DNA of 64,000 bases, taken from assembly GCA_937893495.1 (NCBI GenBank), contig CALBIE010000391.1, positions 1,363 through 65,362 on the forward strand, given 5' to 3'. Position 1 is the stretch's first letter, and every line of letters starts with the position of its first letter. Of this stretch, positions 3,552 to 59,389 are shown one piece after another. The position numbers were made by a program, and so were the translations under genes. The notes under the pieces are model-generated. The model ran no database searches. It had not been told where the DNA came from and was given only the letters and a program-made list of their open reading frames with translations. Source of the stretch: an uncultured Verrucomicrobiales bacterium (GTDB lineage: Bacteria; Verrucomicrobiota; Verrucomicrobiia; Limisphaerales; JAYPXF01).

Positions 3552-6500
3552 ATGAGAACCCGAATCGCAATGCTCCTTTTTGCCCTGTTGGGCGGGTTCT
3601 CCTTTCATGCTGTCGCAGCGGAGTTCGCCGATACCCCGCGTTACGGTCGCGATATTCGACCCATTCTGGCGGACAAATGTTTTCGCTGCCACGGACCGGA
3701 CGCGGCTTCACGAAAGGCGGAACTACGGCTCGACCGTCGGGAAGATGCCATCGCTCTGCGGGACGGACTTCGTGCCGTTTCGCCAGGCGACTCCGGCAGC
3801 AGCGAGTTACTCCATCGAATCACTCACAAGGACGAAGACGATCGCATGCCGCCACCGGACTCGGGTCTGGTTTTGAATTCGACGGAGATAGCGACGTTAC
3901 GCCAGTGGATCATTCAGGGAGCCCGTTATGAAAAGCACTGGTCACTGACGGTGCCGATTCGTCCGCCGTTACCGCTGGTCAAAAACGCAACCTGGCTGAG
4001 GAACGGCATCGACACTTTCATCCTGTCGCGATTGGAGAGGGAAAAAATCGGCGGACCTTCTCCCGTGGCAACGAAGGAAACGCTCATTCGTCGTCTCTCC
4101 CTCGATCTGACGGGATTGCCGCCGACCATTGAAGAGATTGACGCGTATCTCGGTGACCATTCATCCGGAGCCTACGAACGCGTGGTGGATCGCCTCCTGA
4201 ACTCGCCGCGCTTCGGGGAAAAGATGGCTGGACCCTGGCTGGATGCGGCCCGGTTTGCTGACTCCAACGGATACTTTACCGACATGGAGCGTACGATGTG
4301 GCCCTGGCGCGAATGGGTCATTCGAGCGTTCAACGACAACATGCCGTTCGACCAGTTCACCATTGAGCAACTCGCGGGAGATTTGCTTCCGGGCGCAACG
4401 TTGCAGCAGAAGATCGCCACTGGTTTCAATCGCAATCACATGGTAAACAATGAAACGGGAATCATTGCGGACGAGTTTCGAGTGGAGTATGTCGCTGATC
4501 GCGTAAAAACCACATCGACCGTCTGGATGGGATTGACCCTGGAATGCGCCCGTTGTCACGATCACAAATACGATCCGATTTCACAGGAGGATTACTACCG
4601 GTTCTTCGCGTTCTTCAACAATGTGCCGGAGAAAGGGCTGGATGGCGGACGAGGGAACGCGGCCCCCGTTCTCAACGTTGCTACCGCCGCGCAGACTGCA
4701 AGGTTGAAATCACTGGAGAAAAAGATCCAACTGGCCGAGCAGGAATTCAAATCGACGGAGGAACAGTTGCGCATTGCCCAGACGAAGTGGGAAGAGACCT
4801 GCCTGTCGAATTTGCCAAAGGCGACTGACGACGGACTCATCGCCCACTATGCGTTTGAAGGTGATCTCGTCGATTCGACCGGTGGTGGACGTGACGGCGC
4901 GAAGCAAGGGGAGGTCGGATTCAAGCCAGGCTATCTGGGAAACGCTGTGGAGCTGAGTGGCGGTTCAGCGATCGAGGTGGATGCCAATCTGCCGATTGGC
5001 AATGGGGAAGCCTTCTCGGCGGGTGCCTGGATTTATTCGACGGGTGGTGGCACGGCTTGCGTGATTTCGAAGATTGATGACGCCCATGGCCTGCGCGGAT
5101 TCGATCTGGTTCTGCGGAAAGGGAAGGCCGTGGTTCACCTGATTCACCAATGGAACGGGAACGCGATCGAAGTGGCGACTGTCGAATCGGTTTCGGGAAG
5201 ACAATGGCAACACCTCATGTTCACCTATGATGGATCGGGGCACGCCGCCGGCGTCTCAATTTATTTGAATGGGGACCGCCAGGCGCTGGAAATTCGACGC
5301 GATGCGTTGACGGGTTCGTTTGCCACAGCCGAACCTCTTCGAATCGGCCGTCGGCAAGCCAGCGCGTCGTTTCAAGGGCGGATCGATGACGCTCGAATTT
5401 ACCATCGCGCCTTGGGGGAAACGGAAGTGCGAAATCTCGCAAGTGGTCAGTTCCTGCGGGGCGCAATGGCGGTGTCGTCAGACAAGCGTGACAAGTTCTT
5501 GCAGCAGAAATTGCGAGACTACTTTGTCTCACAGCACGCGGAGAACATACAGCGACAAGCAGTCGCGGAACTGGCGCGACTTAAAGGAGAGGCAGCGGAT
5601 TATAAGGCCTCGTTGCCGATAATGATGGTCATGGCGGAAGAGCAAAAACCGCGGTCCTCATTCGTGCTCGAACGTGGCGAATACAATCGCCGGGGCAAGC
5701 TGGTTGAACCGGGTGTTCCCGCGAGTCTGTCGCCCCTGCCGGCCAACGAGCCGCCGAATCGCCTTGGTCTGGCCAGGTGGTTGATGGCTCCGGAGAATCC
5801 GCTGACCGCCCGGGTCATTGTTAATCGATACTGGAGCGAGATTTTCGGGCGCGGCATCGTCGCCACTTCGGAAGACTTCGGCAGTCAGGGTGACTGGCCG
5901 GAACATCCCGAGTTGCTGGACTGGCTGGCTTGCGAGTTTCGGGAGAACGGATGGAACGTCAAAGGATTGCTTCGACTCATCGTCACGTCGGCGATTTACC
6001 GGCAGACTTCGCGGTCCAATTCCGAACGCATCGCACTGGATCCGGACAACCGATTTCTGGCGCGCGGTCCGCGATTTCGGATGACCGCCGAAACCCTCCG
6101 GGACAACGCCCTTCGTCTCAGTGGTCTGTTGGCGGAAGTGATGGGAGGGCCGAGTGTGAAGCCGTATCAACCGGATGGCCTCTGGCGGGAGATGACCTAT
6201 GACAGCGGTCTCTCCTATCAACCCGATCTGGGAGCGTCACTCTACCGGCGCAGCCTTTACACCTATTGGAAACGTCAGTCGCCGCCACCGAACATGTTGC
6301 TCTTTGATGCACCCACCCGGGAAACGTGCACCGTGGCGCGCACCCGCACGAACACGCCACTACAGGCCCTCGCGCTGATGAACGATCCGACCTTTGTGGA
6401 AGCCGCTCGAAATCTGGCGGGACGAATGATGCGAGAGGCAGGTTCACAGGCTGCGGCCCGCATCCGGCATGGTTTTCGTATTGCCACGGGGCGACATCCT

Positions 6501-6701: not shown

Positions 6702-8134
6702 ACATGCTGTCGCGACATGAATGGCGGGGAACCCGGAGGCAATTTCTCGGCCAGGGCGCCGGACTGGGCGTGGCGGCGCTCGCTTCGCTCATCAATCCGG
6801 GAGTCTTCGCCAATAGCGCGGCGGGCAGTGGTTCGGTCGTTCTGCCGCGCGCAAAAAGGATCATCTACCTGTTCATGCATGGTGGTCCGCCGCAGATGGA
6901 GTTGTTCGATCACAAACCGGGCCTGGATCAGAAGCGCGGAAGCGAATTGCCCGCCTCCGTGCGTGGCCGTCAACGCTTGACGGGGATGACGTCCGGTCAA
7001 AAAAACTTTCCCGTGGTTCCATCCAGCTTTCGCTTCGAACGGCATGGCCAATCCGGTGCCAGTATCAGTGAACTGATGCCCGGCCTGGCGGGCGTCGCTG
7101 ATGATCTCTGCTTCATCAAGTCCATGCACACCGAGGCGATCAATCACGATCCCGCCGTGACCTATTTGCAGACTGGCCATCAACAACCCGGCCGACCGAG
7201 CTTCGGTGCCTGGGCAAGCTATGGCTTGGGCAGCGAGAATCAGGATCTACCCGCGTTTGTGGTTCTTCTTTCCAATGGCAGCGCTTCGCGGCCGACCGAT
7301 CCGCTTCATGCGCGCCTATGGGGTTCCGGGTTTCTGCCTTCCAATCATCAGGGCGTTAAATTTCGATCCGGGAACGAGCCGGTACTCTACTTGTCGAATC
7401 CGCCCGGGATCGATGCCGCCAGCCGCCGCCGAATGATTGAAGGGCTGTCTGCTTTGAACCGAAAACATTTTCAGTCGTTCGGCGATCCGGAGATCATCAC
7501 GCGAACGTCACAGTTCGAATTGGCTTCGCGAATGCAGATGTCCGTGCCCGAGTTGACTGATTTATCGAAAGAATCTGACGACGTCTTCAATCTTTACGGG
7601 CCGGACGCAAAGAAGCCCGGTTCCTTTGCCCGGAACTGCATCCTCGCGCGCCGTCTCGCCGAACGCGGCGTGCGGTTCATCCAGCTTTACCATCGCGGTT
7701 GGGATCAGCACTACAATCTCCCCACCGACCTGCGACTCCAATGCCGCGATGTCGATCAACCCTGCGCCGCCCTCGTGCGCGATTTGAAACGACGTGGTCT
7801 GTTGGAAGACACGCTGATCGTCTGGGCGGGAGAGTTCGGACGAACGATTTACAGCCAGGGCAATCTGGAATCCAACAACTACGGTCGCGATCATCACGGC
7901 GGTTGTTTCACCATCTGGCTCGCCGGTGGCGGCATCAAACCGGGGATATCCTACGGCCTGACCGATGAATACTCGTTCAACGTCGCCGAGAATGGCGTGC
8001 ATGTGCATGACCTGAACGCGACGCTTCTCAACCGCCTGGGAATCGACCACGAAAAATTGACATTCAAGTACCAGGGCCGCAACTATCGCCTGACCGATGT
8101 GCACGGTAGTGTTGTGGACGGCTTGCTCGTGTGA
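6698..8134 (+). CDS. DUF1501 family (sulfatase-fold) protein with Tat-type signal
   Basis: 478-aa ORF with a twin-arginine leader (RRQFLGQGAGLGVAALA) and DUF1501 hallmarks (HGGPPQMELFDHKP, GEFGRT, GRDHH). ATG 6698 overlaps the TGA (6699-6701) of the upstream gene as ATGA, the classic DUF1553/DUF1501 pairing. Confidence 0.9.
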   Translation: MNMLSRHEWRGTRRQFLGQGAGLGVAALASLINPGVFANSAAGSGSVVLPRAKRIIYLFMHGGPPQMELFDHKPGLDQKRGSELPASVRGRQRLTGMTSGQKNFPVVPSSFRFERHGQSGASISELMPGLAGVADDLCFIKSMHTEAINHDPAVTYLQTGHQQPGRPSFGAWASYGLGSENQDLPAFVVLLSNGSASRPTDPLHARLWGSGFLPSNHQGVKFRSGNEPVLYLSNPPGIDAASRRRMIEGLSALNRKHFQSFGDPEIITRTSQFELASRMQMSVPELTDLSKESDDVFNLYGPDAKKPGSFARNCILARRLAERGVRFIQLYHRGWDQHYNLPTDLRLQCRDVDQPCAALVRDLKRRGLLEDTLIVWAGEFGRTIYSQGNLESNNYGRDHHGGCFTIWLAGGGIKPGISYGLTDEYSFNVAENGVHVHDLNATLLNRLGIDHEKLTFKYQGRNYRLTDVHGSVVDGLLV

Positions 8135-44065: not shown

Positions 44066-44148
44066 GCGTCCCTTCAGGACGCCGTAGCTATTGAAATCCT
44101 TGCCCCGGACTGAAGTCCGGGGCTTTTACGGGTGATGCCTTCAGCATC
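44066..44148 (+). repeat. REP unit 1 (three hairpins, orientation A)
   Basis: GCGTCCcttcaGGACGC ... CCCCGGACtgaaGTCCGGGG ... GATGCcttcaGCATC. Confidence 0.85.
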
Positions 44149-44300: not shown

Positions 44301-44328
44301 GCCACGAACAACCGAAGCCGATGCTGAA

Positions 44329-44412
44329 AGCATCTCCGATAACAGCCCCGGACTTCAGTCCGGGGTCATCCGCGCCCAAATGAAACGCGTCCTGAAGGGA
44401 CGTCCGATCACG
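44329..44412 (-). repeat. REP unit 2 (orientation B)
   Basis: GATGCtgaaaGCATC ... CCCCGGACttcaGTCCGGGG ... GCGTCCtgaagGGACGt; inverse of units 1 and 3. Confidence 0.85.
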
Positions 44413-44416
44413 CCGT

Positions 44417-44878
44417 TCAATCCCAAACATATCGTTCATCATAATCAACCTGATAGGCTTTCAGAAACTTCCGGAATTCAACTTGAAATGAAACTTTCCG
44501 ATGATGTTCCTGCTGTTTCCGAATGTATTCAACGACCTGGTCCGTGTCTTTCGGGCTGATACTGAACCAACCATAACCGGCCTGCCAATTGAAATGGCCG
44601 TGGATCATATTGTTGTCGTTGATCCATTTGGATGATCCGCCCTTCAATTCCTTCATGAAGTCCACGTCCGTGGTGGTCTTGGAGGATTTGATCAAAAGGT
44701 GTACATGGTCAGGCATGCCGTTGATGGCGATTAACCCAGCGCCGCGTTCTCGCACCATGCCGGTCATGTAGGAATGAATCCGATCTGCGATGTCGGTCCC
44801 GATCATCGGTTTACGGTTCTTCGTGGAGAACACGATGTGGGCGAAATTACAGTGGAGAGATTGAGGCATCGGGGGCAA
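44417..44878 (-). CDS. REP-associated tyrosine transposase (RAYT; IS200/IS605 TnpA-like Y1 HUH transposase)
   Basis: 153-aa ORF. AHIVFSTKNRKP, HUH motif PDHVHLLI, C-terminal catalytic-Tyr region VVEYIRKQQEHH. Flanked by inverted REP units 2 and 3. Confidence 0.85.
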   Translation of the reverse strand: MPPMPQSLHCNFAHIVFSTKNRKPMIGTDIADRIHSYMTGMVRERGAGLIAINGMPDHVHLLIKSSKTTTDVDFMKELKGGSSKWINDNNMIHGHFNWQAGYGWFSISPKDTDQVVEYIRKQQEHHRKVSFQVEFRKFLKAYQVDYDERYVWD

Positions 44879-45003: not shown

Positions 45004-46743
45004 TCACTTGTCCGCCTTCGGAGCGTTCTTTTTCTTGACCGGTTTCTTGGACTTGGGGGCAACCACGTTTCCCTTTTTGTCGATCCCGAGTTCATCAACG
45101 ACTTCTTGCTTTGAACTTTCGCGCCAAGATGAATTCTTCATCTGACCTTTGCAGATGGCTGTCTTCGCGGTGTGCTCGCGTTTCGCCGCCTTCAAACCCG
45201 TTTCCAGCTTGGCACGCTGCTTCTCGATGTCCGGCGGATTCTTCGCCTTGAGAGCCTCAAGGTCGCGCTGGAATCGTTCCTCCTTTTTCGCTAATCCTTC
45301 GTCCAGCCACTCCAGGTATGCAGCATAGACTTCCGACACGGCACCACCGTCCACTTTGTTGACATACTGCTGCCGGAGATGGTCCATCTCGGAAATTCTT
45401 TCCGGCATCTCGGCAGCGAGGTCATGCTCTTCCTTGTAATCCTTCGCCACGTTGAACAGTTTCATTTCGCCGGAGTTCAAATGTCTCATCAGCTTGTAGT
45501 CCCCGATACGAATTACGCTGATCGGCGGGTGGTAGTGGCAGGGGTAATGAAAGATCAGCCCGGGTGCGCCACGCGCAACGGTGCCCCCGTTTCCCCGTTC
45601 AAACACATCGCGGAGACTCCCTCCGTCCACGCCCGTCGGCAGCGGAGCCCGGCTGCCGGACAGATCGTGCAGTGTTGGCAGCAGATCCCATTGCACGACG
45701 GGAACGTTACACTGCGATCCCGGTTTGATTCCCGGACCGTACACCACGAACGGAACACGAAGCCCGCCCTCGAACATCGAACGCTTGCCTTCCTGCAACG
45801 GGCCGTTGAATCGATTGCCAGTCTCGTCACGGCGGCCGCGACCGCCTCCGTTGTCGGATGTGAAGATGACGTAGGTGTTGTCGAGTTCCTTTGAGTCCTT
45901 GAGCGCGTCGAGGATGGCTCCAAGACTCGCGTCGGTTTCTTCGACCATCGCCGCATACTGCCATTCCGGGAAATGCTTTTTGTATTCCTTGTCCTTCGGG
46001 CCGAGATCCGGATTTCCCGCGGCGACCCAGCGACGTCGACAACGCTCGATCGCTTCCGGAGAGGCCTGATAGGGAATGTGCACGGCGTAATGCGAGACCA
46101 TTAGGTAGAACGGTTGCTTTCCGGCGTGCTTCTTCACGAATTCAACTGACCGCCGCGTCAGATCGACGATCCGCTTGGGATTGTCGTCCGGAATCGAAAC
46201 CTTTCCCTTCACGTCGATGTAAGAGCCATGACCATTCCCATTGGGACCCCTGTCAAATTCGTCCGTGTCGTCGTAGCCGGCGTGGTCCATCCGACGAACT
46301 CCCATCCCCTTGCCGAAATGAGCCGTCACGTAGTTTTTGTCGGCGGCTTTGAGCACGGCGGCCATCGAGACTTCGTCGTCCCAACCGTCCGGTCGCTGCT
46401 TCTTGGAGAGCACGTCGAAGACGTTGCGGTACTGCATCCGCGCCGACGTCTTTCCAAACTGAATGCTGATTCGTGAGCCGGTGCAGGTCGGGGTCGGCGC
46501 GTAGCCAGAGCTGAATCGCACACCCTGCTTCGACAGTCGCTCCAGCGCCGGCGTCTGATAGAAATCGCTCTTCGAAAACGGTTCGTCATCCAACATGCGA
46601 ACCGAACTGTCCGCCCAGCCAAGGTCGTCCACGTAGAAGATGACGAAATTGGGGGGCGAATCGGCGGCCTTGAGGCTTGGCGCGAGACACAAGCAGATCA
46701 GCACCTCAATCGCGGATTGAAGGTAACAACGTAATATGCTCAT
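45004..46743 (-). CDS. sulfatase-family enzyme with non-canonical CTGSR active-site motif and Lys-rich C-terminal tail
   Basis: 579-aa ORF. PPNFVIFYVDDLGWAD, PTPTCTGSRISIQFGK (Cys codon at 46483-46485), HFGKG, FTSDNGG. The tail is KKGNVVAPKSKKPVKKKNAPKADK. Confidence 0.85.
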   Translation of the reverse strand: MSILRCYLQSAIEVLICLCLAPSLKAADSPPNFVIFYVDDLGWADSSVRMLDDEPFSKSDFYQTPALERLSKQGVRFSSGYAPTPTCTGSRISIQFGKTSARMQYRNVFDVLSKKQRPDGWDDEVSMAAVLKAADKNYVTAHFGKGMGVRRMDHAGYDDTDEFDRGPNGNGHGSYIDVKGKVSIPDDNPKRIVDLTRRSVEFVKKHAGKQPFYLMVSHYAVHIPYQASPEAIERCRRRWVAAGNPDLGPKDKEYKKHFPEWQYAAMVEETDASLGAILDALKDSKELDNTYVIFTSDNGGGRGRRDETGNRFNGPLQEGKRSMFEGGLRVPFVVYGPGIKPGSQCNVPVVQWDLLPTLHDLSGSRAPLPTGVDGGSLRDVFERGNGGTVARGAPGLIFHYPCHYHPPISVIRIGDYKLMRHLNSGEMKLFNVAKDYKEEHDLAAEMPERISEMDHLRQQYVNKVDGGAVSEVYAAYLEWLDEGLAKKEERFQRDLEALKAKNPPDIEKQRAKLETGLKAAKREHTAKTAICKGQMKNSSWRESSKQEVVDELGIDKKGNVVAPKSKKPVKKKNAPKADK

Positions 46744-46750
46744 GAATCTG

Positions 46751-46830
46751 GTTTGATGGATTATTATAGTGTGTGACTGACGCCGAAGGAGTTTGATGGA
46801 TTATTATAGTGTGTGACTGACGCCGAAGGA
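46751..46830. repeat. perfect 2 x 40-bp tandem duplication directly upstream of the sulfatase start codon; each unit carries TATAAT on the gene strand
   Basis: gtttgatggattattatagtgtgtgactgacgccgaagga occurs at 46751-46790 and again at 46791-46830. The reverse complement contains cacTATAATaatcc. Confidence 0.9.
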
Positions 46831-47063
46831 TGATGAGCCCGGCAACCACGCTTTTGCAACGGTTCTGGAGGGCAGGAAAACTGGTCGATGAGTTCATGAA
46901 AGGCTAGGGCGATGGATGCAGGATGCTGCTCGGACGTGATGAGGACAAGCCGCATTCGAAGATCAGCCGTTCGATTTCTGGAGGAATTCGGTCAGGCCCA
47001 GGCTTCAACTCAGCCAATTCCGCGGTGTTTCAGTATCGGACAGCGCAATCGGCCACTTGCGAC

Positions 47064-47147
47064 GATGCTGAAAGCATCATCCGAAATAGCCCCGGACTTC
47101 AGTCCGGGGTCACCTGCGCCCGCAGGACACGCGTCCTGAAGGGACGC
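47064..47147 (-). repeat. REP unit 4 (orientation B)
   Basis: GATGCtgaaaGCATC ... CCCCGGACttcaGTCCGGGG ... GCGTCCtgaagGGACGC. Confidence 0.85.
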
Positions 47148-47171
47148 CCGAACACACCGCTCAGTCTCGAA

Positions 47172-47255
47172 ATTGTTGTCGTTAATCCATTTGGATGATT
47201 CGCTCTTCAATTCCTACATGAAGTCCAGGGCTGTTATCGGTGATGCTTTCAGCAT
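47172..47255 (-). pseudogene. 58-bp internal fragment of a second RAYT gene plus a lone REP hairpin (decayed REP/RAYT unit)
   Basis: 47172-47229 (attgttgtcgttaatccatttggatgattcgctcttcaattcctacatgaagtcca) is about 90% identical by eye to 44608-44665 inside the intact RAYT gene (region ...DFMKELKGGSSKWINDNN). GATGCtttcaGCATC lies at 47241-47255. Confidence 0.7.
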
Positions 47256-47280
47256 CCGTTTCATTCGTCCGCGAATCGGG

Positions 47281-48186
47281 TTATCGCAATGAGACGGAGA
47301 TTGAACAAACAGGGGCACCATCGGCGAATCGAAATGCCGCATACCCGGGACTCGATGGCTTGATTTCCACGGGATCAACGCCACCAAATCTCGGTTTGGA
47401 GCCCAGCTTCTTCTCTTCCAACCATGGCTCGAGCGTGACGCGGAGCGGGCAATTCTCCACGGTGACTTGTTTGGTTACCTCGTTCCCGCTTTCCGACCGT
47501 TCGATGCGTACCCGGGTCCAGGCCGTTTCTTTCTGATCAGCCAGCCGAATTGGTATCTCGAGTTCCATCCATTTCCAGCCGGTCGGCATGGCATCGCGAA
47601 CGCGAAAGGTGTTGTCCGGAATCGAATAGGAAATCCCTGCCAATCCCTCCAGGAACAACAAAATCTTCCCGGCGTTGAAGTTGGAATACTGATCCCCGAA
47701 CAAAGTCAGATCCCGTTTGTAGGCTTCGGGCGCGACCGGAATGTCCCACTCCTGATGGTAGTTGTAATGGAACAGATGATTGACCGTGAGCTCCGACGCG
47801 GTCTTCGCCAGGCCTTGACGAAACATCCCACCGAGCGTGAAGTAGGCGGTGTCGGGCGTATAGCCAAAGGAATGATCGACCGGGGTCGCGAAGGCCTTCA
47901 TCGATTGCTTCGCCATCGCCAACGGAAAAAACTCGCCGTAGAAACCGTTTTCCCGATCCAGGGCCCAGATTGCCACCATGCGCTCGGCGTATTCGCGCGG
48001 AAAATACCGCGATTGCATGGCCCAAAAAAGGTTGGTCGTCAGCATGCCATTCTTTGGCCCGGCAAAGTAGTTTTTGTCGCCGTTCACCTCCCAACGTTGA
48101 TCGAACATCAAGCGGATGTGCTTGGGATCACGGCGTATGATTGTCTGCCAAGTCCAAGAATCAGAAACAATTGAATGACCCGCGAA
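47281..48186 (-). pseudogene. 5'-truncated glycoside-hydrolase-like gene (C-terminal part of an (alpha/alpha)6-barrel-type enzyme, tentative)
   Basis: The ORF-track entry is 47281..48111, but the frame stays open upstream to a TAG near 48187 (CFAGHSIVSDSWTWQTIIRRDPKHIRLMFDQRW...) with no plausible start or N-terminal domain. The family call is weak (FYGEFFPLAMAK, NAGKILLFLEGLAGI). Confidence 0.45.
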
Positions 48187-48223
48187 GCACTACGACTCAC
48201 TAGCTTGGAATCTTTGTGGAACC

Positions 48224-48283
48224 ATGCCAACACCCGGAGAACACAAAACCGTCCAAGCCCGGATCCTCGAATACGCCGAGGCC
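48224..48283 (+). pseudogene. 20-codon remnant resembling the N-terminus of a type I restriction enzyme R subunit
   Basis: MPTPGEHKTVQARILEYAEAI then runs straight into direct-repeat copy 1. The xHxTVQxxILxYAxxIGW-type N-terminus is recalled from HsdR-family proteins, from memory only. Confidence 0.3.
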
Positions 48284-48504
48284 ATCCGCCTTCGCCGACA
48301 TCCGTCGCTTTCCAAACTATGGAGGTCAAGAGGCTGCGGTGGGACAAGTCGGCATTTCCTACGGGGTAAGCTGGAAAACGGTGCGGCGAAAGTTCCTTGA
48401 TTGGAAATTGGAGGAACCACGGATTTCACGGATGGGCACGGATAAGAAGGCCGTGGTCAGTCATCCTTGCGAATCCGTGGCATCCGTGGTCGATACTCCG
48501 GGCC
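48281..48504 (+). repeat. 224-bp direct repeat, copy 1 (left flank of fic)
   Basis: Aligns without gaps to 49975-50198, with about 20 mismatches by eye. Contains internal inverted motifs CCACGGATTTCACGGATG / AATCCGTGGCATCCGTGG. Confidence 0.9.
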
Positions 48505-48714
48505 AACGAGGAATTTCACGCCTGGCTCCGCGGCGACAAGACCACCCCCTCCGAAAGCTCTTCGGAAAGTTCTTCACTAGGATGTTCACTTTTGTGAGTA
48601 TTTTCAAACAGATAATCTAATAATATGCTATTTTTAAACAGTTTACAGAATTTAAACATCTCCGTTAAGGTTTTCACTGTGAAACCGAAAGAAGCCTACA
48701 AAGGCATTGCGGCG

Positions 48715-49899
48715 ATGGAGCCGATGCTCCCGGATTTGCAGTCCAGGGAACTGGCGGAGCTGAGCCAAAATGTGACCCTGGCCATCGGTGAACTCAGCGC
48801 TCACCTGCCTTCGGCCGTGGTTCGGCGGCAGGTCAGTCAACTGGTGCAGCGGATGAATTGCTACTACAGCAACCTCATCGAAGGCCACAAAACGCTCCCC
48901 CGTGATATCGAGCAGGCCGAAAGGCAGCAGTTGACCGAGGGTCCGCAGGAGGAACGCGACAAACAACTCCTGGCGGAGGCGCACATCCAAACCGAAGCCG
49001 CGATGATCAAGCGTCTTGAATCGCAGGAAGGGGTGGACGTCTTTTCCTCTGATTTCATTTGCTGGATTCACCGGACATTCTACGAACGGTTGCCCGAGTC
49101 CATGCGCGAGGCGAAGACCCTTGCGGGCGCGAGCTATCAGATCGAACCGGGGCAACTGCGGGAATTCATGGTGGACGTCGGCAGACACACGCCTCCGGAT
49201 CATTCCGTGCTCCCCCAATTTCTCGACCGGTTTCGGAAGGCCTACAGTGAGCCGTCAATCCTCGCCACCCAGCAACTCGTTGCCATTGCGGCGGCGCATC
49301 ACCGCCTTGCCTGGATTCACCCTTTCGGCGATGGCAACGGACGGGTGCTCCGCCTTCATTCCCACGCCCTGCTGCACCGTCAGAATCTGCATGGTCACGG
49401 ACTTTGCACTCTTTCCCGTGGACTCGCCCGCAACCGGCAAAGCTATTTCAACCATCTGCAGGCCGCGGACCGTGGGCGGGAGAACGACTTTGACGGCCGG
49501 GGAAATCTCAGCGCCAAACAGCTATCCGCGTTCTGCCGGTTTTTCCTCAAAACGTTGCTCGATCAGGCGCAGTTCATGAACGGCTTGCTGAACCTGGCCG
49601 ATTTTCGCACCCGGATCGAAAGACACTTTCAGTTCCAAGCCTTGGATCTGAAGCAGGATCAAGAGGCGATCAGCGCCATCGTTACCACGCTGGCCTACGA
49701 GGGTGAGATGCAGCGGGAACGCGTGAAAACCATAACCGGCAAGGGCACCACGACTGCCGCCCGGATTATCAAACTGGGCCTTGCGGAAGGCTATTTCTCC
49801 TCTCCTTCTCCGAAAGGCGTGCTTCAATTCGCCCTGCCGGAGAAAGCGTGGGAGTCCTATTTTCCCCAACTGTTTATCGATCTGGAGATAGACGAGTAA
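48715..49899 (+). CDS. Fic family protein (AMPylase-type Fic motif, N-terminal inhibitory S-x-x-x-E-G helix)
   Basis: Fic motif HPFGDGNGRVLR. Putative auto-inhibitory motif SNLIEG upstream. Met at 48715 preferred over the ORF-track start at 48625, which lies in an AT-rich leader. Confidence 0.85.
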   Translation: MEPMLPDLQSRELAELSQNVTLAIGELSAHLPSAVVRRQVSQLVQRMNCYYSNLIEGHKTLPRDIEQAERQQLTEGPQEERDKQLLAEAHIQTEAAMIKRLESQEGVDVFSSDFICWIHRTFYERLPESMREAKTLAGASYQIEPGQLREFMVDVGRHTPPDHSVLPQFLDRFRKAYSEPSILATQQLVAIAAAHHRLAWIHPFGDGNGRVLRLHSHALLHRQNLHGHGLCTLSRGLARNRQSYFNHLQAADRGRENDFDGRGNLSAKQLSAFCRFFLKTLLDQAQFMNGLLNLADFRTRIERHFQFQALDLKQDQEAISAIVTTLAYEGEMQRERVKTITGKGTTTAARIIKLGLAEGYFSSPSPKGVLQFALPEKAWESYFPQLFIDLEIDE

Positions 49900-49974
49900 T
49901 GCGACTCCTTCCCCTTCAAAGGACACCACAACGCCCGACAAGTTCCACCGCCCATGTCCTTCAACGACATCGCC

Positions 49975-50198
49975 GCCATCCGCCTTCGCCGCCATCCGTC
50001 GCTTTCCAAGCTATGGAGGTCAAGAGACTGCGGCGGGACAAGTCGGCATTTCCTACGGGGTGAGATGGAACACCGTGCGGCGAAGGTTCTTTGATTGGAA
50101 ATTGGAGGAACCACGGATTTCACGGATGGGCACAAATAAGTAGGCCGAGGTCAGTCATCCGTGTGAATCCGTGTCATCCGTGGTCGAAACTCCGGGCC
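49975..50198 (+). repeat. 224-bp direct repeat, copy 2 (right flank of fic)
   Basis: See copy 1. Confidence 0.9.
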
Positions 50199-50205
50199 GC
50201 CTTGG

Positions 50206-50330
50206 TCACTTCAGCAATCCGCGCAGGTCGGCGACGGTCTCCAGCATCAAGTCGGGGCGGACGCCGGATTGGGCGATGTGGTCTTCGCGGTGTCCAACGT
50301 ATCCGTTCGAAACAATTGCCGGATTCAAAC
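50206..50330 (-). pseudogene. possible C-terminal remnant of a HAD-type hydrolase gene
   Basis: Only the last ~40 codons of minus-strand ORF 50206..50505 look protein-like (NPAIVSNGYVGHREDHIAQSGVRPDLMLETVADLRGLLK). Upstream, the frame is Arg/Ala-rich junk overlapping a long hairpin. Confidence 0.25.
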
Positions 50331-50344
50331 ACAGCCCCCGCGCT

Positions 50345-50465
50345 GGAGCGCGACTGTGTCGGAGGCCAGCCGCAGCATGTGCGGTCGTCGAGTTGTGTCG
50401 TGCGTTCCAACGCGCTCGCCCGGAGGAGGCTGCTGCGACTGGCCTTTCAGGCACAGTCGCGCTCC
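50345..50465. other. 121-nt extended hairpin (14-bp perfect outer stem + 14-bp inner stem with one mismatch)
   Basis: GGAGCGCGACTGTG (50345-58) pairs with CACAGTCGCGCTCC (50452-65). GGCCAGCCGCAGCA (50364-77) pairs with the complement inside GCTGCTGCGACTGGCC (50429-44). It lies about 110 nt upstream of the DUF1553 gene start. Confidence 0.6.
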
Positions 50466-50575
50466 AAGGCAGTGCGTGGGTGCGCCCTTGCCCCCGGCCC
50501 GACATCTCGTATAGTTCGCGGATAACTCTGAATCGCCCGGCCTGTTGTCAGGTCTGAATACACCACACCAGTCAC

Positions 50576-53563
50576 GTGAAATCTTTCGCCGCCATCCTGA
50601 TTGTCAGTGCACAACTCGCCGTTGCAGCGCAAGTGCCGGCGGATGCCGGATCGCATTGGGCGTTTCAGCCGGTCGCCAATCCAACGGTTCCCGGGCTGCC
50701 CGATTCAGATTGGGTGCGTTCTCCCATTGATGCCTTTGTCCTGCAAAAACTACGCGGTGCGAAACTCGCTCCTTCACCCGAAGCGGATCGGCGCACTTTG
50801 ATTCGCCGGGTTTATTACACGCTGACCGGGCTGCCGCCGTCGCCCGAGGAGGTCACCCGCTTTGTCGCCGATACCGATCTACACGCCTATGAACGGTTGG
50901 TCAATGCGTTGCTTGAGTCGCCGCATTACGGCGAGCACTGGGGGCGGCATTGGCTGGACGTGGCGCGTTACGCGGACACCAAGGGCTACGTGTATGCCCG
51001 CGAGGAACGATTCTGGACGCATGCCTGGGCGTATCGGGATTGGGTCGTCAATGCACTCAATGATGATTTGCCGTACAATCGCTTCCTGCTGCTGCAACTC
51101 GCGGCGGACCAGGTCAAAGACCGGAAGAACGACGACCTCGCGGCGATGGGGTTCCTCACTTTGGGGCGGCGTTTCCTTGGAGTGCAACGCGAGATCATCG
51201 ACGACCGCATCGACGTGGTCACGCGCGGGACGATGGCCTTGACCGTGAGTTGCGCGCGTTGCCACGACCACAAATACGATCCGATTCCGACAGCCGATTA
51301 CTATTCGCTCTACGGTATCTTTGCCAGCAGCGCGGAGCGCAAGACGGCGTTGGGTGCCAAACCGGCGGGTGACGAAGCCTTTCAGACGGAACTGCGCAAA
51401 CGCCAGGAGAAGCTGACGACCACGGTCGCGACCCGTCGCCGGGAATCATCGGACCGCACCCGTCGGCGTATCGCCGAATATCTGAACGCACAGACCGAAC
51501 TGCAAAAGTATCCAGCGGATGGTTTTGACCAGGTGTTTTCGAAGGACGATTTGCTGCCGGCGTTTGTGCGGCGCTGGGAGACGTATCTGCATGAGTCGAG
51601 GCAGAAGCGTGACCCTGTTTTTGTGCTGTGGCATGCCTATGCTGCATTGCCGGAGAAATCCTTCCGGGAAGACGCGGTTGCGGTTACGCGACGACTGGCC
51701 GAAGCTGCGGAGGGAAGCATCAATCCCATCGTGGCGGCGGCATTCAAGGAATCGCCGGAATCGTTCGAGCAGGTTGTTGAGCGGTATGGAAAGTCGTTTG
51801 GCGAGATCGAAACCCGGTGGCAGTCGCTGATAAAAACAGCGAAGAATGAAAAGCAGTCCCCGCCCGAAACACTTCCCGAATCGAGCGCGGAAGCGTTGCG
51901 GCGCATATTGCACGGGCCGGGTGCGCCGTGCGAGGTTCCGGACCTACCGATTGTTCACAGCGAAACGTTTTTTGATTCGGGATCATTGACAGCACTCTGG
52001 AAACTTCAGGGCGAGGTGGATCGGTGGATCGTGAATTCGAAGATCGCCGCGCCGTTCGCGTTGACGATGGTGGACCGGCCGCAACCCGTCGCCAGCCGCG
52101 TGTTTCTGCGCGGCAATCCGCTGACGCAGGGCGAGGAGACGCCGCGGCATTTCCTGTCCCTTTTCGGCACCGAAAGTCGCAAGCCATTTCAACATGGCAG
52201 CGGGCGGATGGAGCTTGCGCGGGCGATTGTCGATCCCACCAATCCGTTGACCGCCCGCGTCGCGGTCAATCGCGTGTGGATGCATCACTTTGGCGAAGGG
52301 CTGGTGACCACGCCCAGTGATTTCGGTCTGCGCGCCGGCGCGCCTTCTCATCCGGAATTGCTGGATTGGCTCACCACCCGATTCATCGCCGAAGGCTGGA
52401 GCTTCAAGAAACTACATCGACTGATTCTACTCTCCGCAACGTTCCGCCAATCTGCGGCCGGGCCGCGGGATGAATCGGTTCGCGCACAGGCGATACAGTT
52501 CGATCCGGACAACCGCTTGCTGTGGCGGGTGAACCAGCATCGGCTGACGTTCGAGGAATTTCGCGACACGATGTTTGCTTCGGCGGGTGAGCTCGACCGG
52601 GGCGCTGGCGGGAAGCCGGCGGACATGTTCAAGCCGCCGTTTCTCAAGCGGCGCGCGCTCTACGGGCTGGTGGATCGTCAATACCTGCCGGGCACTTTGC
52701 GCGTGTTCGATTTCGCGAATCCCGATCTGCATATCCCGCAACGCAGCGAAACCACCGTGCCGCAACAGGCGTTGTTTTTCATGAACCATCCGCTGGTGCT
52801 CGAACGCGCACGCGCCCTGGCAAAGGCGGGCGGCGAATCCGCGTTGCCAAAGGAAAAAACTCGCGCCCTGTTTCAACGGGCGTTTCAGCGGGATCCGACT
52901 GACGCCGAAGTGGCTGAGTCACTGGATCTGATTCGAGCCGCCGCCGCGACGCCGACCTCCAAGCCACCCGTCACGGCGAAGGATTGGCAATACGGCTATG
53001 GGACGTTCGACGAGATGGCCGAACGTGTGACAGGATTCACCGCGCTTCCGCATTTCACCGGCGCAGCGTGGCAGGGCGGCCCGAGTTGGCCGGACGCCAA
53101 GCTGGGCTGGGTACAACTCACCGCCACAGGCGGGCATCCGGGCAACGATTTGAAACACGCCGCAGTTCGCCGCTGGACTGCACCTCGCAAGATGGCGATC
53201 GAGATTCAATCGCGACTGGTTCACGAACCGAAGGCCGGTGATGGCATCCGGGCGTTCATCGTGAGTTCACGCACCGGAAAACTGAAGGCCGAGACGATTC
53301 ATCAGAAGACGGTCACGATGAACGTATTGTCGCTTGAAGTGGAAAAGGGCGAGACGATCGATTTCGTGGTGGACATCGGCAAGGTGCTGAACAGCGATCA
53401 GTACCTGTGGAGCGCAAAGGTGTTGGAAGCGGCGAAGCGGGAAGGCCGTCTGGCGTGGAATTCGCAGGACGATTTTCCGAAGAACGAGATCAATCGGCTG
53501 ACCGGCTGGGAACAACTCGCCCAGGCGCTGCTGTGCTCGAACGAGTTTTTGTTTGTGGATTGA
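50576..53563 (+). CDS. DUF1549/DUF1553 family protein (no cytochrome-like domain)
   Basis: 995-aa ORF with a GTG start and signal peptide (KSFAAILIVSAQLAVAAQ). RRVYYTLTGLPPSPEEV, CARCHDHKYDPI, ARVAVNRVWMHHFGEGLVTTPSDFG..G..PSHPELLDWL. Confidence 0.9.
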   Translation: MKSFAAILIVSAQLAVAAQVPADAGSHWAFQPVANPTVPGLPDSDWVRSPIDAFVLQKLRGAKLAPSPEADRRTLIRRVYYTLTGLPPSPEEVTRFVADTDLHAYERLVNALLESPHYGEHWGRHWLDVARYADTKGYVYAREERFWTHAWAYRDWVVNALNDDLPYNRFLLLQLAADQVKDRKNDDLAAMGFLTLGRRFLGVQREIIDDRIDVVTRGTMALTVSCARCHDHKYDPIPTADYYSLYGIFASSAERKTALGAKPAGDEAFQTELRKRQEKLTTTVATRRRESSDRTRRRIAEYLNAQTELQKYPADGFDQVFSKDDLLPAFVRRWETYLHESRQKRDPVFVLWHAYAALPEKSFREDAVAVTRRLAEAAEGSINPIVAAAFKESPESFEQVVERYGKSFGEIETRWQSLIKTAKNEKQSPPETLPESSAEALRRILHGPGAPCEVPDLPIVHSETFFDSGSLTALWKLQGEVDRWIVNSKIAAPFALTMVDRPQPVASRVFLRGNPLTQGEETPRHFLSLFGTESRKPFQHGSGRMELARAIVDPTNPLTARVAVNRVWMHHFGEGLVTTPSDFGLRAGAPSHPELLDWLTTRFIAEGWSFKKLHRLILLSATFRQSAAGPRDESVRAQAIQFDPDNRLLWRVNQHRLTFEEFRDTMFASAGELDRGAGGKPADMFKPPFLKRRALYGLVDRQYLPGTLRVFDFANPDLHIPQRSETTVPQQALFFMNHPLVLERARALAKAGGESALPKEKTRALFQRAFQRDPTDAEVAESLDLIRAAAATPTSKPPVTAKDWQYGYGTFDEMAERVTGFTALPHFTGAAWQGGPSWPDAKLGWVQLTATGGHPGNDLKHAAVRRWTAPRKMAIEIQSRLVHEPKAGDGIRAFIVSSRTGKLKAETIHQKTVTMNVLSLEVEKGETIDFVVDIGKVLNSDQYLWSAKVLEAAKREGRLAWNSQDDFPKNEINRLTGWEQLAQALLCSNEFLFVD

Positions 53564-58266: not shown

Positions 58267-58423
58267 GGGGACCACAGTCGGCCCGACTGTCCATTCCGGC
58301 GGCTCGCCGGAATGATCGTTGCGCGCGGATATCCAGGTGCCAATCGGATTGGAACAGCAACACGATCTCCCAACTTTTTTTGGCGAGCCGCCAAAAACAA
58401 CACGCGGGCCGCGTGTGCTCCCC
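58267..58423 (+). mobile_element. four-hairpin MITE-like element, copy A (fills the whole gap between two convergent stop codons)
   Basis: GGGGACCACAGTCGGccCGACTGT cc ATTCCGGCGgctCGCCGGAAT ... TTTTTGGCGagCCGCCAAAAA ca ACACGCGGgcCGCGTGTGCTCCCC. Stop codons lie at 58263-65 (+) and 58425-27 (-). Confidence 0.8.
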
Positions 58424-58424
58424 A

Positions 58425-59213
58425 TCACCAAAGCGTGTAGCCACCATCAATGACCAACGCCGCGCCGGTCATGTAGCGTGAGGCAGAGCTGGCCAGGTAA
58501 ACGGCCAACGGGCCCAAATCCTCCGGTTCACCGAACTTGCCCATCGGTATTTCCGCCTCGAACTTTTTGATCACGTCCGGGTTCTCCCGCGCCCACCGTT
58601 GGTTCGGTTCAGTCATGAATCCGCCCGGGCAGATGGCGTTGACCGTGATGCCGTGCGGCGCCCAATCGGCCGCGACCGTCCGGGTGAACTGGATGACAGC
58701 GGCCTTCGATGTCTCGTAACTCCTTCCGCCGATTCCGCGATTGGCAATCATGCCGGAGATGGATGCGATGTTGATGATGCGCCCACCGTTGCCTCGTTCA
58801 ATCATGGCCTTGCCGATCAGTTTCGTGCAGAGAAATGTGCTGGTGAGGTTCAGGTCCATGATTCGTTGCCATTCCGCCAACGGCAAATCCTCGGTCGGAA
58901 CGTTGATCAACCGCCCACCGACGTTGTTGATGAGGATGTCGATTGGTCCGTGTTGCTCAAGCGCTGCGCGGCACATGGATTCACACTCGCCGGGGTTACC
59001 CGCGTCGGCCTGAATCGTGACGGCTTGTCGTCCCAGTTTTTCAATATCACCGGCAGTGGCGGCGAGCGATTCGGCATCGCGACCGACGAGGATGGCATCA
59101 GCACCGGCATCCGCGATGGCGAGCGCCATTTCGCGCCCGAGCCCGCGACTGCCGCCGGTGATGAGCATCCGTTTGCCGGCGAGGGAAAAGCGTTTGAAGA
59201 TGGAGTTGGGCAT
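58425..59213 (-). CDS. SDR family oxidoreductase (gluconate 5-dehydrogenase / KduD-like)
   Basis: 262-aa ORF. TGGSRGLG cofactor motif, NNVG, and the catalytic region YETSKAAV. Confidence 0.9.
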   Translation of the reverse strand: MPNSIFKRFSLAGKRMLITGGSRGLGREMALAIADAGADAILVGRDAESLAATAGDIEKLGRQAVTIQADAGNPGECESMCRAALEQHGPIDILINNVGGRLINVPTEDLPLAEWQRIMDLNLTSTFLCTKLIGKAMIERGNGGRIINIASISGMIANRGIGGRSYETSKAAVIQFTRTVAADWAPHGITVNAICPGGFMTEPNQRWARENPDVIKKFEAEIPMGKFGEPEDLGPLAVYLASSASRYMTGAALVIDGGYTLW

Positions 59214-59233: not shown

Positions 59234-59389
59234 GGGGAGCACAGCCGGCCCGGCTGTCCCTTCCGGCGGCCCGCCGGAAGGATCTTGATGCGCGGAAGCT
59301 CAGATGCCAATCGGAACGGAACAGCAGCACGACCGCCCAACTGTTTTTGGCGAGCCGCCAAAAACAACACGCGGGCCGCGTGTGCTCCC
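59234..59389 (+). mobile_element. four-hairpin MITE-like element, copy B
   Basis: GGGGAGCACAGCCGGccCGGCTGT cc CTTCCGGCGgcCCGCCGGAAG ... TTTTTGGCGagCCGCCAAAAA ca ACACGCGGgcCGCGTGTGCTCCC. Lies between the SDR start and the stop of the CN-hydrolase gene. Confidence 0.8.

Follow-up and report, generated by a model that had tools for sequence, protein, structure and literature searches.

A SoFic-type Fic gene bracketed by long direct repeats in a decayed type I restriction locus of an uncultured Verrucomicrobiales bacterium

Introduction

Accessory defence and toxin genes can be embedded in or lie beside type I restriction-modification (R-M) operons, as exemplified by PrrC in EcoprrI, and R-M gene units are themselves reportedly subject to insertion with long target duplication (ILTD), which Nobusato et al. 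are said to have described in 2000 (Gene 259:99). The locus considered here is a Fic gene which lies between two copies of a 224-nt direct repeat in the genome of an uncultured Verrucomicrobiales bacterium. The stretch of DNA that was analysed (the window) comprises 64,000 nt of contig CALBIE010000391.1 (positions 1,363 to 65,362; the 65.6-kb contig C391) and belongs to a metagenome-assembled genome (MAG) of 7.98 Mb in 900 contigs with 6.7% contamination, which was searched as a whole and compared with 100 relatives (101 genomes of the order including its own). With slightly better than even confidence, the repeat-Fic-repeat structure is read as the scar of a recombinase-free, ILTD-type insertion of a SoFic-type module into an already dead hsdR gene.

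Two described systems come closest. Kobayashi's group has characterised ILTD in R-M genes as inserts without mobility genes whose flanking repeats of more than 30 bp are copies of the target (Furuta, Abe and Kobayashi 2010, NAR, PMC2853133). The published repeats range from 30 to ~420 bp at 93-100% identity, the criteria being direct repeats of >30 bp and an insert of <20 kb (PMC2853133), and the repeats around R-M units are proposed to allow amplification and release of the unit. SoFic is a stand-alone anti-phage Fic protein (Millman et al. 2022, bioRxiv 10.1101/2022.05.11.491447), of which the E. coli member, EcSofic, is toxic and is countered by AS1, a 47-aa protein encoded downstream (PMC12249575).

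Like the ILTD R-M units, the window holds a short gene unit without a mobility gene, flanked by repeats of more than 30 bp which appear to copy the local target. It differs from them in its target, which is a pseudogene together with a palindrome of the repetitive extragenic palindromic (REP) kind, and in its cargo, which is a Fic AMP-transferase and not a nuclease/methylase pair. The published idea that DNA breakage by the cargo itself drives the insertion can for this reason not apply directly.

A unique repeat around a single gene

A repeat search and a MAFFT alignment of the window resolve the two copies (Table 1) as one collinear, gap-free direct repeat with 206 of 224 positions identical (92%), much as an earlier note, made from the letters of this DNA alone, had described them (collinear, ungapped and about 90% identical by eye). 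The 18 mismatches, which comprise 9 transitions and 9 transversions of all kinds, are evenly spread and show no block pattern of the sort expected of a hybrid copy. The two longest stretches without a mismatch measure 43 nt and 27 nt, and the similarity ends at both edges. A BLAST search of the whole assembly, a check that the note had proposed, found the full-length repeat in two copies only (E 2e-113 and 5e-89), along with a few matches of 28-33 nt at repeat positions ~132-168. The note had held that a high-copy dispersed element would speak against its reading; dispersal is confined to the palindromic third of the repeat (positions 135-220), which recurs many times and on both strands in 32 of the 101 genomes, and the full 224 nt are unique to the locus, so that the repeat as a whole is ruled out as such an element.

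An assembly artefact, in which a chimeric join of strain variants produces a false repeat, might be suspected of a source as fragmented (900 contigs) and contaminated (6.7%) as this one. The copies, however, differ at 18 positions and share no more than 43 identical bases, and an assembler running at k=141 would consequently not confuse them. An independent ENA contig is 100% identical over 47000-51000 and the same arrangement is present on 3-4 contigs, which leaves this explanation barely credible.

Two further candidates for the nature of the repeat were rejected. A template/variable repeat pair of a diversity-generating retroelement is ruled out since the mismatches are not adenine-specific, and no reverse transcriptase was found among the larger flanking open reading frames (ORFs) scanned with Pfam. 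Folding of the repeat, which the note had also suggested, recovers the hairpin of the palindrome and nothing else. With a whole-repeat z-score of about -2.1 and no Rfam match at E<=1 in either copy, a structured RNA is not supported. A scan of 48100-50400 for promoters and terminators gave nothing exceeding shuffled sequence.

Table 1. Coordinates of the features at the Fic locus and of the compared loci; positions refer to the window unless a contig is named.
Feature	Position	Strand	Remarks
5'-truncated glycoside-hydrolase-like gene	47281..48165	-	about the last third of a ~790-aa protein; homologues in two same-family genomes
hsdR stump, G074-type family, codons 1-21	48224..48286	+	tblastn 20/21 residues; blastn 92% over 63 nt
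Left repeat copy	48281..48504	+	hsdR-derived part, then REP-like palindrome; 206/224 identical to right copy
hsdR fragment inside left repeat, ~codons 195-218	48336..48407	+	out of frame with stump
REP-like palindrome, 28-nt arms, CACGGAT motifs	48416..48490		arms 48416-48443 / 48463-48490
Fragment of second hsdR family (h72-type), codons ~107-124; left end of inserted segment	48497..48553	+	86% over 57 nt to L072 1384-1440
AT-rich Fic leader with two degenerate operator-like paired sites (~48569-48589, ~48656-48677)	48553..48678	+	GC 0.42
Class II Fic gene, SoFic-type, 406 aa	48679..49899	+	Pfam Fic and PADLOC SoFic profile
Module tail, 75 nt	49900..49974	+	homology to L071 reaches 49953
Right repeat copy	49975..50198	+	hsdR-like part 50030-50101, palindrome 50110-50184
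Short C-terminal-looking open frame	50206..50330	-	identity unverified
Locus L070	matches 48555-49897		84% nt; unrelated context; without the 224-nt repeat
Locus L071	matches 48655-49953		86% nt; unrelated context; without the 224-nt repeat
Locus L072 (Verrucomicrobiales MAG)	matches 48553-49883		76% nt; Fic 1.9 kb downstream of intact 999-aa hsdR
Loci L073-76, L081			Fic 74% protein; Fic 430 nt downstream of intact 1151-aa hsdR
Second Fic with MarR-type winged helix	C865:900-2138		repeat 51 nt, 96%
AAA_14-DUF4143 ATPase	C205:4249-6645		repeat 419 nt of sulfatase gene 3' end, 89%
ATPase_2 protein	C538:3077-4799		repeat 150 nt, 81%
DUF3644 / EC042_2821 nuclease-like (REase-like) protein	C255:1504-2683		repeat 49 nt, 90%
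PIN toxin	C170:2233-3221		repeat 141 nt, 94%
PIN toxin	C23:46864-47901		repeat 120 nt, 88%

Composition of the repeat

The unique part of the repeat matched a single hsdR gene among the 100 relatives, in genome G045, where the matching DNA encodes ...GFSYGVTWNTVRRNIFNWK. A full-length relative of this gene is found in G074 (L066 5054-7975), where it encodes a protein of 973 aa in a hsdM-hsdS-x-hsdR-DUF45-like operon. Against this HsdR the HsdR-like N-terminus of about 20 codons that the earlier note had recognised to the left of the repeat is confirmed at both the protein and the nucleotide level (Table 1). The repeat itself also contains hsdR-derived sequence. In the left copy AVGQVGISYGVSWKTVRRKFLDWK (48336-48407) aligns to ATDAIGFSYGVTWNTVRRNIFNWK of the G074 HsdR (tblastn 1e-5; blastn 78% over 59 nt) and to the G045 hsdR with 86% identity over 43 nt, and in the right copy 50030-50101 matches the same region of the G074 gene (blastn 80% over 59 nt). 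This piece belongs to the same hsdR family and lies on the same strand as the 21-codon stump on its left. It is cut off after Lys218 by the REP-like palindrome, in which the crossed inverted motifs of the note can be recognised as its 28-nt arms. About 134 nt of the 224-nt repeat are accordingly derived from hsdR and the remainder is the dispersed palindrome. The note had the repeat truncating the stump; it does not merely do so, as it is itself partly hsdR-derived. This composition is the reason why the repeat is best read as a duplicated target and not as an element-borne repeat or a capture device.

The hsdR gene of G045 (L017 / L067; G045:C5 ~90036-90900) is intact up to Lys219 and then abuts, head-on, the first ~40 codons of a RAYT-like gene; this break lies within a few bases of the position at which hsdR fragment and palindrome meet in the window. 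Several copies of the CACGGAT palindrome arm are also present at C215:4363-8968 of the genome itself (G000), together with a 247-nt repeat (94%) around a 311-aa ORF which has no Pfam match and by eye resembles a nuclease of the Rpn/YhgA type.

One and the same frame is open in both repeat copies, giving ORFs of 58 aa (48224-48400) and 46 aa (49954-50094) with different N-termini: the left one begins at the hsdR start codon and the right one with MSFND, which resembles the MSFNE start of h72-type HsdR, a second family described below. Six of the ten differences between the repeat copies in the 46-aa frame change the residue, as counted from the alignment. Both ORFs are probably an out-of-frame reading of GC-rich DNA, with no sign of selection.

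The Fic module between the repeats

The insert between the copies (48505-49974, 1470 nt) contains the AT-rich leader and the Fic gene with its SNLIEG motif, both of which the note had named as its only contents; in addition a 57-nt fragment of a second hsdR family overlaps its left end. Here LRANEEFHAWLRGDKTTP (48497-48553) aligns to VRANEEFYAWLSGDKTMP of the HsdR of L072 (tblastn 1e-6), the corresponding L072 positions 1384-1440 being situated within an intact 999-aa hsdR. The h72-type and G074-type HsdR proteins share only 32% identity. The 8-nt sequence TCCGGGCC, read from the sequences, is common to the end of the repeat and the h72-type fragment, at the junction of the left repeat with the insert.

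The closest homologues of the Fic protein (74-89% protein identity) were followed back to the contigs that encode them. In both L070 and L072 homology begins at the same place in the leader (48553-48555), and in L070 an h72-type hsdR fragment (codons 48-130) ends ~10-15 nt before this position. From these alignments, the mobile unit of this Fic clade appears to consist of an h72-type hsdR remnant, the leader, the Fic gene and a short tail. The closest relatives on long contigs carry their Fic gene directly downstream of an intact hsdR, which explains why the module should carry an hsdR remnant. No match to the window Fic was found in five genomes of the same family. The recurrence of the unit in unrelated contexts, the foreign hsdR fragment that it carries and its lack of a match in same-family genomes together support the view that it acts like a horizontally mobile module which was inserted into what used to be a type I restriction locus. 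The insertion of a Fic cassette into a former R-M locus, as the note had suggested, is thereby upheld in part: the module appears to have moved in, and the repeat does not appear to have served as its capture device.

In its placement, the Fic clade resembles the PrrC/EcoprrI type of arrangement, being found repeatedly on the same strand as, and directly downstream of, hsdR (L072, L073-76, L081, L086, L092). In the window, unlike that arrangement, nothing is left of the restriction genes but fragments of two hsdR families, and Fic is the sole intact gene.

It is conceivable that the Fic gene has always resided in this restriction locus and that the second copy of the hsdR fragment and palindrome arose in place, either by tandem duplication of the repeat and Fic followed by partial deletion, by REP-associated recombination or by gene conversion between hsdR remnants. 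The frequent position of the clade directly downstream of hsdR would agree with this, as would L072, which likewise has an hsdR fragment of the same gene region just after Fic, and a RAYT/REP system 3.4 kb away in an area rich in gene remnants. However, the fragment that travels with the leader is h72-type and the stump and both repeat copies are G074-type, and with two different hsdR families a single resident locus fails to explain the structure. Tandem duplication with deletion would require two or three precise events, the palindrome of the repeat is of a different family from the REP of the neighbouring RAYT, and the repeats found around Fic across the family are pieces of unrelated host genes. 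A purely local origin is thus considered unlikely.

Two of the compared loci have rearrangements of their own. In L070 (4637-8098) the 5' end of Fic contains a unit of 1.95 kb which is bounded by 25-nt terminal inverted repeats (5090-5114 / 7012-7036) and has three small ORFs, none with a Pfam match; the unit lies between two ~455-nt copies that include the hsdR remnant, leader and Fic start, and the Fic gene is also split into frames of 299 aa and 107 aa. In L072 the Fic leader is closely preceded by a ~115-nt unit in five tandem copies (5265-5811).

Flanking repeats across the Fic family and the genome

Repeats around Fic are also found where the neighbouring genes are alive. In L071 the repeat measures 52 nt (96%); one copy lies within the upstream DUF2779 gene, which is intact, and the other begins 38 nt past the Fic stop codon. 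The repeat of L072, 346 nt long (93%), is made of the hsdR/mcsB intergenic region together with the final 25 codons of an mcsB-like gene; the left copy follows the intact hsdR and has of the mcsB-like gene these 25 codons only, the right copy runs into the intact mcsB-like gene, and both neighbour genes are intact. A 124-nt copy (87%) of codons ~207-247 of the locus' own hsdR is found 83 nt after the Fic stop (L072 7304-7427). L073-76 have a 63-nt repeat around Fic.

A scan of 80 further metagenome loci showed a repeat pair around Fic in 17 of the 50 loci with adequate flanks under a looser criterion. Under a tight geometric criterion Fic is flanked by direct repeats of 35-230 nt in 8/52 loci, compared with 5/194 control ORFs in the same DNA (odds ratio 6.9, Fisher p=0.0013). 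One of the control matches lies in the window itself, where a 156-nt direct repeat (87%; 58267-58422 / 59234-59389) surrounds an SDR gene (58425-59213, minus strand). Taken over the family, the flanking repeats measure 35-692 nt, are 84-96% identical, differ in each context and are pieces of local sequence; an identifiable neighbour gene contributes to them in L071 (DUF2779), L072 (mcsB-like) and L092/L099 (hsdR C-terminus). In several loci only 1-42 nt separate the Fic stop from the right copy. Reconstructions of empty sites for the other family loci gave mixed results and are not used as evidence.

This variability bears on whether a site-specific or transposon-like element could be involved, with the repeats being att sites or the ends of a non-autonomous element which is moved in trans by an integrase, a transposase or a RAYT. 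Islands that carry an integrase do have direct repeats at their edges, from tens to hundreds of bases long, those of tyrosine recombinases in particular having partly diverged direct repeats of 50-200 nt around foreign DNA, and in this the locus resembles them; the repeat includes a palindrome, and 12 tyrosine recombinase matches, partial and interrupted ones included, exist elsewhere in the genome. In contrast to such islands, contig C391 has no tyrosine recombinase (Phage_integrase) match over its 65.6 kb, and the repeat is not conserved between insertions of the module family but changes in both sequence and length with the context, as would not be expected of a site-specific system. Nor are there terminal inverted repeats or a short target duplication at the ends of the insert, and the repeat has only its two copies in the genome. 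Integrase att sites are ruled out on these grounds, as are insertion sequences, transposons with terminal inverted repeats and miniature inverted-repeat elements, because no inverted repeat pairs the insert ends. An element of this general kind is very unlikely.

Comparison of the genome with itself yielded 57 unique two-copy repeat pairs spaced 0.6-5 kb apart. Several of these bracket a single gene, among them a second Fic, two PIN toxins and nuclease-like and ATPase genes (Table 1). In C205 the insert supplies the stop codon of the intact sulfatase copy, which ends precisely at the edge of the repeat.

A probable insertion with long target duplication

The structure agrees in several respects with ILTD. 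The 224-nt repeat, 92% identical, and the 1470-nt insert fall within the published limits for repeat and insert length, the insert holds no gene other than Fic, the nearest mobility gene is the RAYT 3.4 kb away with its different REP, and the repeat is not dispersed, only positions 135-220 recurring beyond its two full copies.

The most probable course of events is as follows. The target would have been a dead hsdR of the G074 type, reduced to codons 1-21 and, after an internal deletion, codons ~195-218, and cut off by the REP-like palindrome. A segment of 1.47 kb (48505-49974) from an h72-type hsdR-Fic locus would then have been joined in, with 224 nt of the target becoming duplicated on either side of it. 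The join was probably illegitimate, as the 8 nt shared at the junction of repeat and insert may indicate, and the likeliest route would be that a linear piece of DNA was caught between breaks that were staggered or lay on sister chromatids. Once in place, the copies, with their identical runs of 43 nt and 27 nt, could recombine through RecA at a low rate, which would lead to loss, amplification or the formation of a circle.

Several observations weigh against this course of events. The published ILTD cases are defined by a genome with an empty site, whereas this locus is known only in its occupied state: none of the 100 relatives has the stump, repeat and right flank without Fic, the genus having no other genome in the set, and all 3-4 public contigs with the exact flanking proteins keep the Fic gene. 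The repeat copies differ by 8%, which implies that the event is old or that the copies were born different, and none of ~15 repeats of the family is identical, unlike the prediction of a simple fill-in duplication. The left edge of the repeat is only 0-49 nt from the internal deletion junction of the hsdR remnant, a mild coincidence if a staggered break had fallen at random. In both the window and L072, the hsdR piece that follows Fic comes from the same part of the gene even though the families differ; the breakpoints in the window repeat, in the post-Fic fragment of L072 and in the G045 truncation after Lys219 all fall between ~codons 174 and 247. Finally, four of the eight tightly flanked Fic loci have related contexts, so that the enrichment test overstates their independence.

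The divergence of the copies would be accounted for if the module had entered as a circle. In this Campbell-type scheme, a circle of one repeat and the Fic module, excised by recombination between the repeats in a sister strain which already had the structure, enters a resident copy of the dead hsdR by a single homologous crossover; the illegitimate joins would have taken place earlier in another genome and the repeats would be diverged from the start. Direct repeats of such length are substrates for excision, the copies here are 92% identical, and neither any of the ~15 family repeats nor the repeats around the genome's own cassettes are identical. Kobayashi's group has proposed a cycle of this kind for R-M units, of which only the amplification step has been backed by experiment (PMC2853133). 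Against it, no circle junction and no repeat-only allele is seen among the relatives or the contigs with the flanking proteins, and the even spread of the mismatches lacks the blocks of a hybrid copy. Campbell-type entry also still needs an original illegitimate insertion, and hence explains the spread of the structure and not its origin; as an account of this locus it is rather improbable. Insertion with long target duplication is the reading retained in what follows.

The Fic protein

Class II Fic proteins, as reportedly defined by Engel et al. in 2012, have an inhibitory motif, (S/T)xxxE(G/N), on the same chain as the Fic core and N-terminal to it. In the window protein SNLIEG (48868-48885, residues 64-69) fits this motif and lies 150 residues before the catalytic motif HPFGDGNGRVLR (49318-49353, residues 214-225), which fits HxFx(D/E)GNGRxxR. 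The match to Pfam Fic (PF02661) has an E-value of 1.6e-13 and scores 51.8 bits against a cut-off of 24. Because database homologues are 406-407 aa in length, the true start of the gene is the GTG at 48679 and not the ATG at 48625.

The PADLOC SoFic profile (PDLC03963) aligns its positions 15-329 of 361 with residues 17-365 of the protein at 3.1e-33, and Fic/FICD structures match the protein by sequence. With the NCBIfam SoFic equivalog (NF046030) it reaches 33 bits, below the cut-off of 550, and is consequently a distant member of the SoFic family. Like SoFic it is a stand-alone class II protein with catalytic and N-terminal inhibitory motifs, a C-terminal domain and a neighbourhood of defence genes; unlike the members of the equivalog it scores far below the threshold, and a role in defence is putative. 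EcSofic is accompanied by AS1, whereas the 46-aa ORF that follows the window Fic lies mostly within the repeat and is not conserved in relatives. It is probably spurious and was rejected as an AS1-like antitoxin. In several relatives the flanking repeat begins 1-8 nt after the Fic stop.

The GC content of the Fic ORF is host-like and the AT-rich part is the leader only. In 32 of the 62 leaders of the Fic family (L071-L128) a paired motif, ATNTTC-N5-7-ATNTTC, is present at ~-114 and ~-24 from the start, compared with two matches in 853 kb of other DNA of these loci that served as control, and the window leader has degenerate versions of the pair at the same two places. Judged by this conservation, the paired sites are probably operators of a self-regulated promoter. 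Knowledge of the family suggests that the protein may be an AMP-transferase of the SoFic class of single-gene anti-phage systems which inhibits itself and regulates its own expression, with its C-terminal winged helix probably binding to the leader sites. The glutamate of SNLIEG would block ATP until a trigger releases the enzyme, which would then AMPylate host targets and abort the infection.

Neighbouring features

To the left of the hsdR stump, the hydrolase gene (Table 1) is truncated at its 5' end, in agreement with the earlier note. It retains about the last third of the protein, is 64-66% identical to the C-terminal parts of frames of 754-844 aa in G001 and G005 and is collinear with these relatives by tblastx; the frame is closed by a stop at 48192, and a 787-aa homologue matches Pfam GH65_C at 2e-5. 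The stump of ~40 codons to the right of the second repeat, which the note had called HAD-like, could not be verified as such: Pfam gave nothing at E<=1 for the frame at 50206-50330, and none of 40 relatives has a homologue. Between it and a DUF1549/DUF1553 gene, a long imperfect hairpin with 35-nt arms (74% complementary; 50329-50481) is probably another dispersed palindrome.

Further to the left, three matches to the Rfam family Acido-Lenti-1 (44103-44148, 44320-44365 and 47064-47109) score 28.6-33.3 bits, below the gathering score of 37, and coincide with REP hairpins around the IS200-like RAYT gene (ORF 44417-44878). The Acido-Lenti-1 "sRNA" motif may simply be the REP family associated with this RAYT. 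A perfect 40-nt tandem duplication (46751-46830) is located just upstream of a sulfatase gene (45004-46743, minus strand).

Implications

The structure is real and non-random. Its anatomy, the composite make-up of the repeat, the occurrence of the module in other contexts and the enrichment of host-derived repeats around Fic in the family are observed, and the direction of the event, the way of joining and the function are inferred. At the level of the locus, the more modest result is a record of how two type I restriction genes have decayed around a defence gene that survived. Most likely, the structure is also an ILTD-like scar, and Fic would then add a new class of cargo to a type of gene mobility which is known but has received little study. 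The ways in which single defence genes travel between genomes in the absence of integrases and transposases are poorly understood, and the long target duplications around R-M genes have so far been attributed to DNA cutting by the cargo. The presence of the same scar at Fic, where it is enriched in the family, and at PIN, AAA_14-DUF4143 and DUF3644 genes of the same genome suggests that defence islands may be built and turned over by a general route which the host drives. The repeats, the microhomology at the junction and the operator-bearing leader offer a concrete structure on which this can be tested.

A wider proposal, which is tentative and on balance doubtful, is that SoFic-type Fic genes and other one-gene toxin or defence genes (the second Fic, AAA_14-DUF4143, PIN and DUF3644/REase-like) are recombinase-free mobile cassettes. 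They would enter by means of long and variable duplications of the landing sequence and then use these duplications for amplification, for excision as circles, which the earlier note had also considered for this repeat, and for homologous re-entry into sister strains. The interest of the locus would be higher if such a general cassette life cycle were demonstrated. The mechanism would then be driven by the host and not by the cargo, and the cassettes would extend the "virus-like life cycle" proposed for R-M genes to defence genes that do not encode nucleases.

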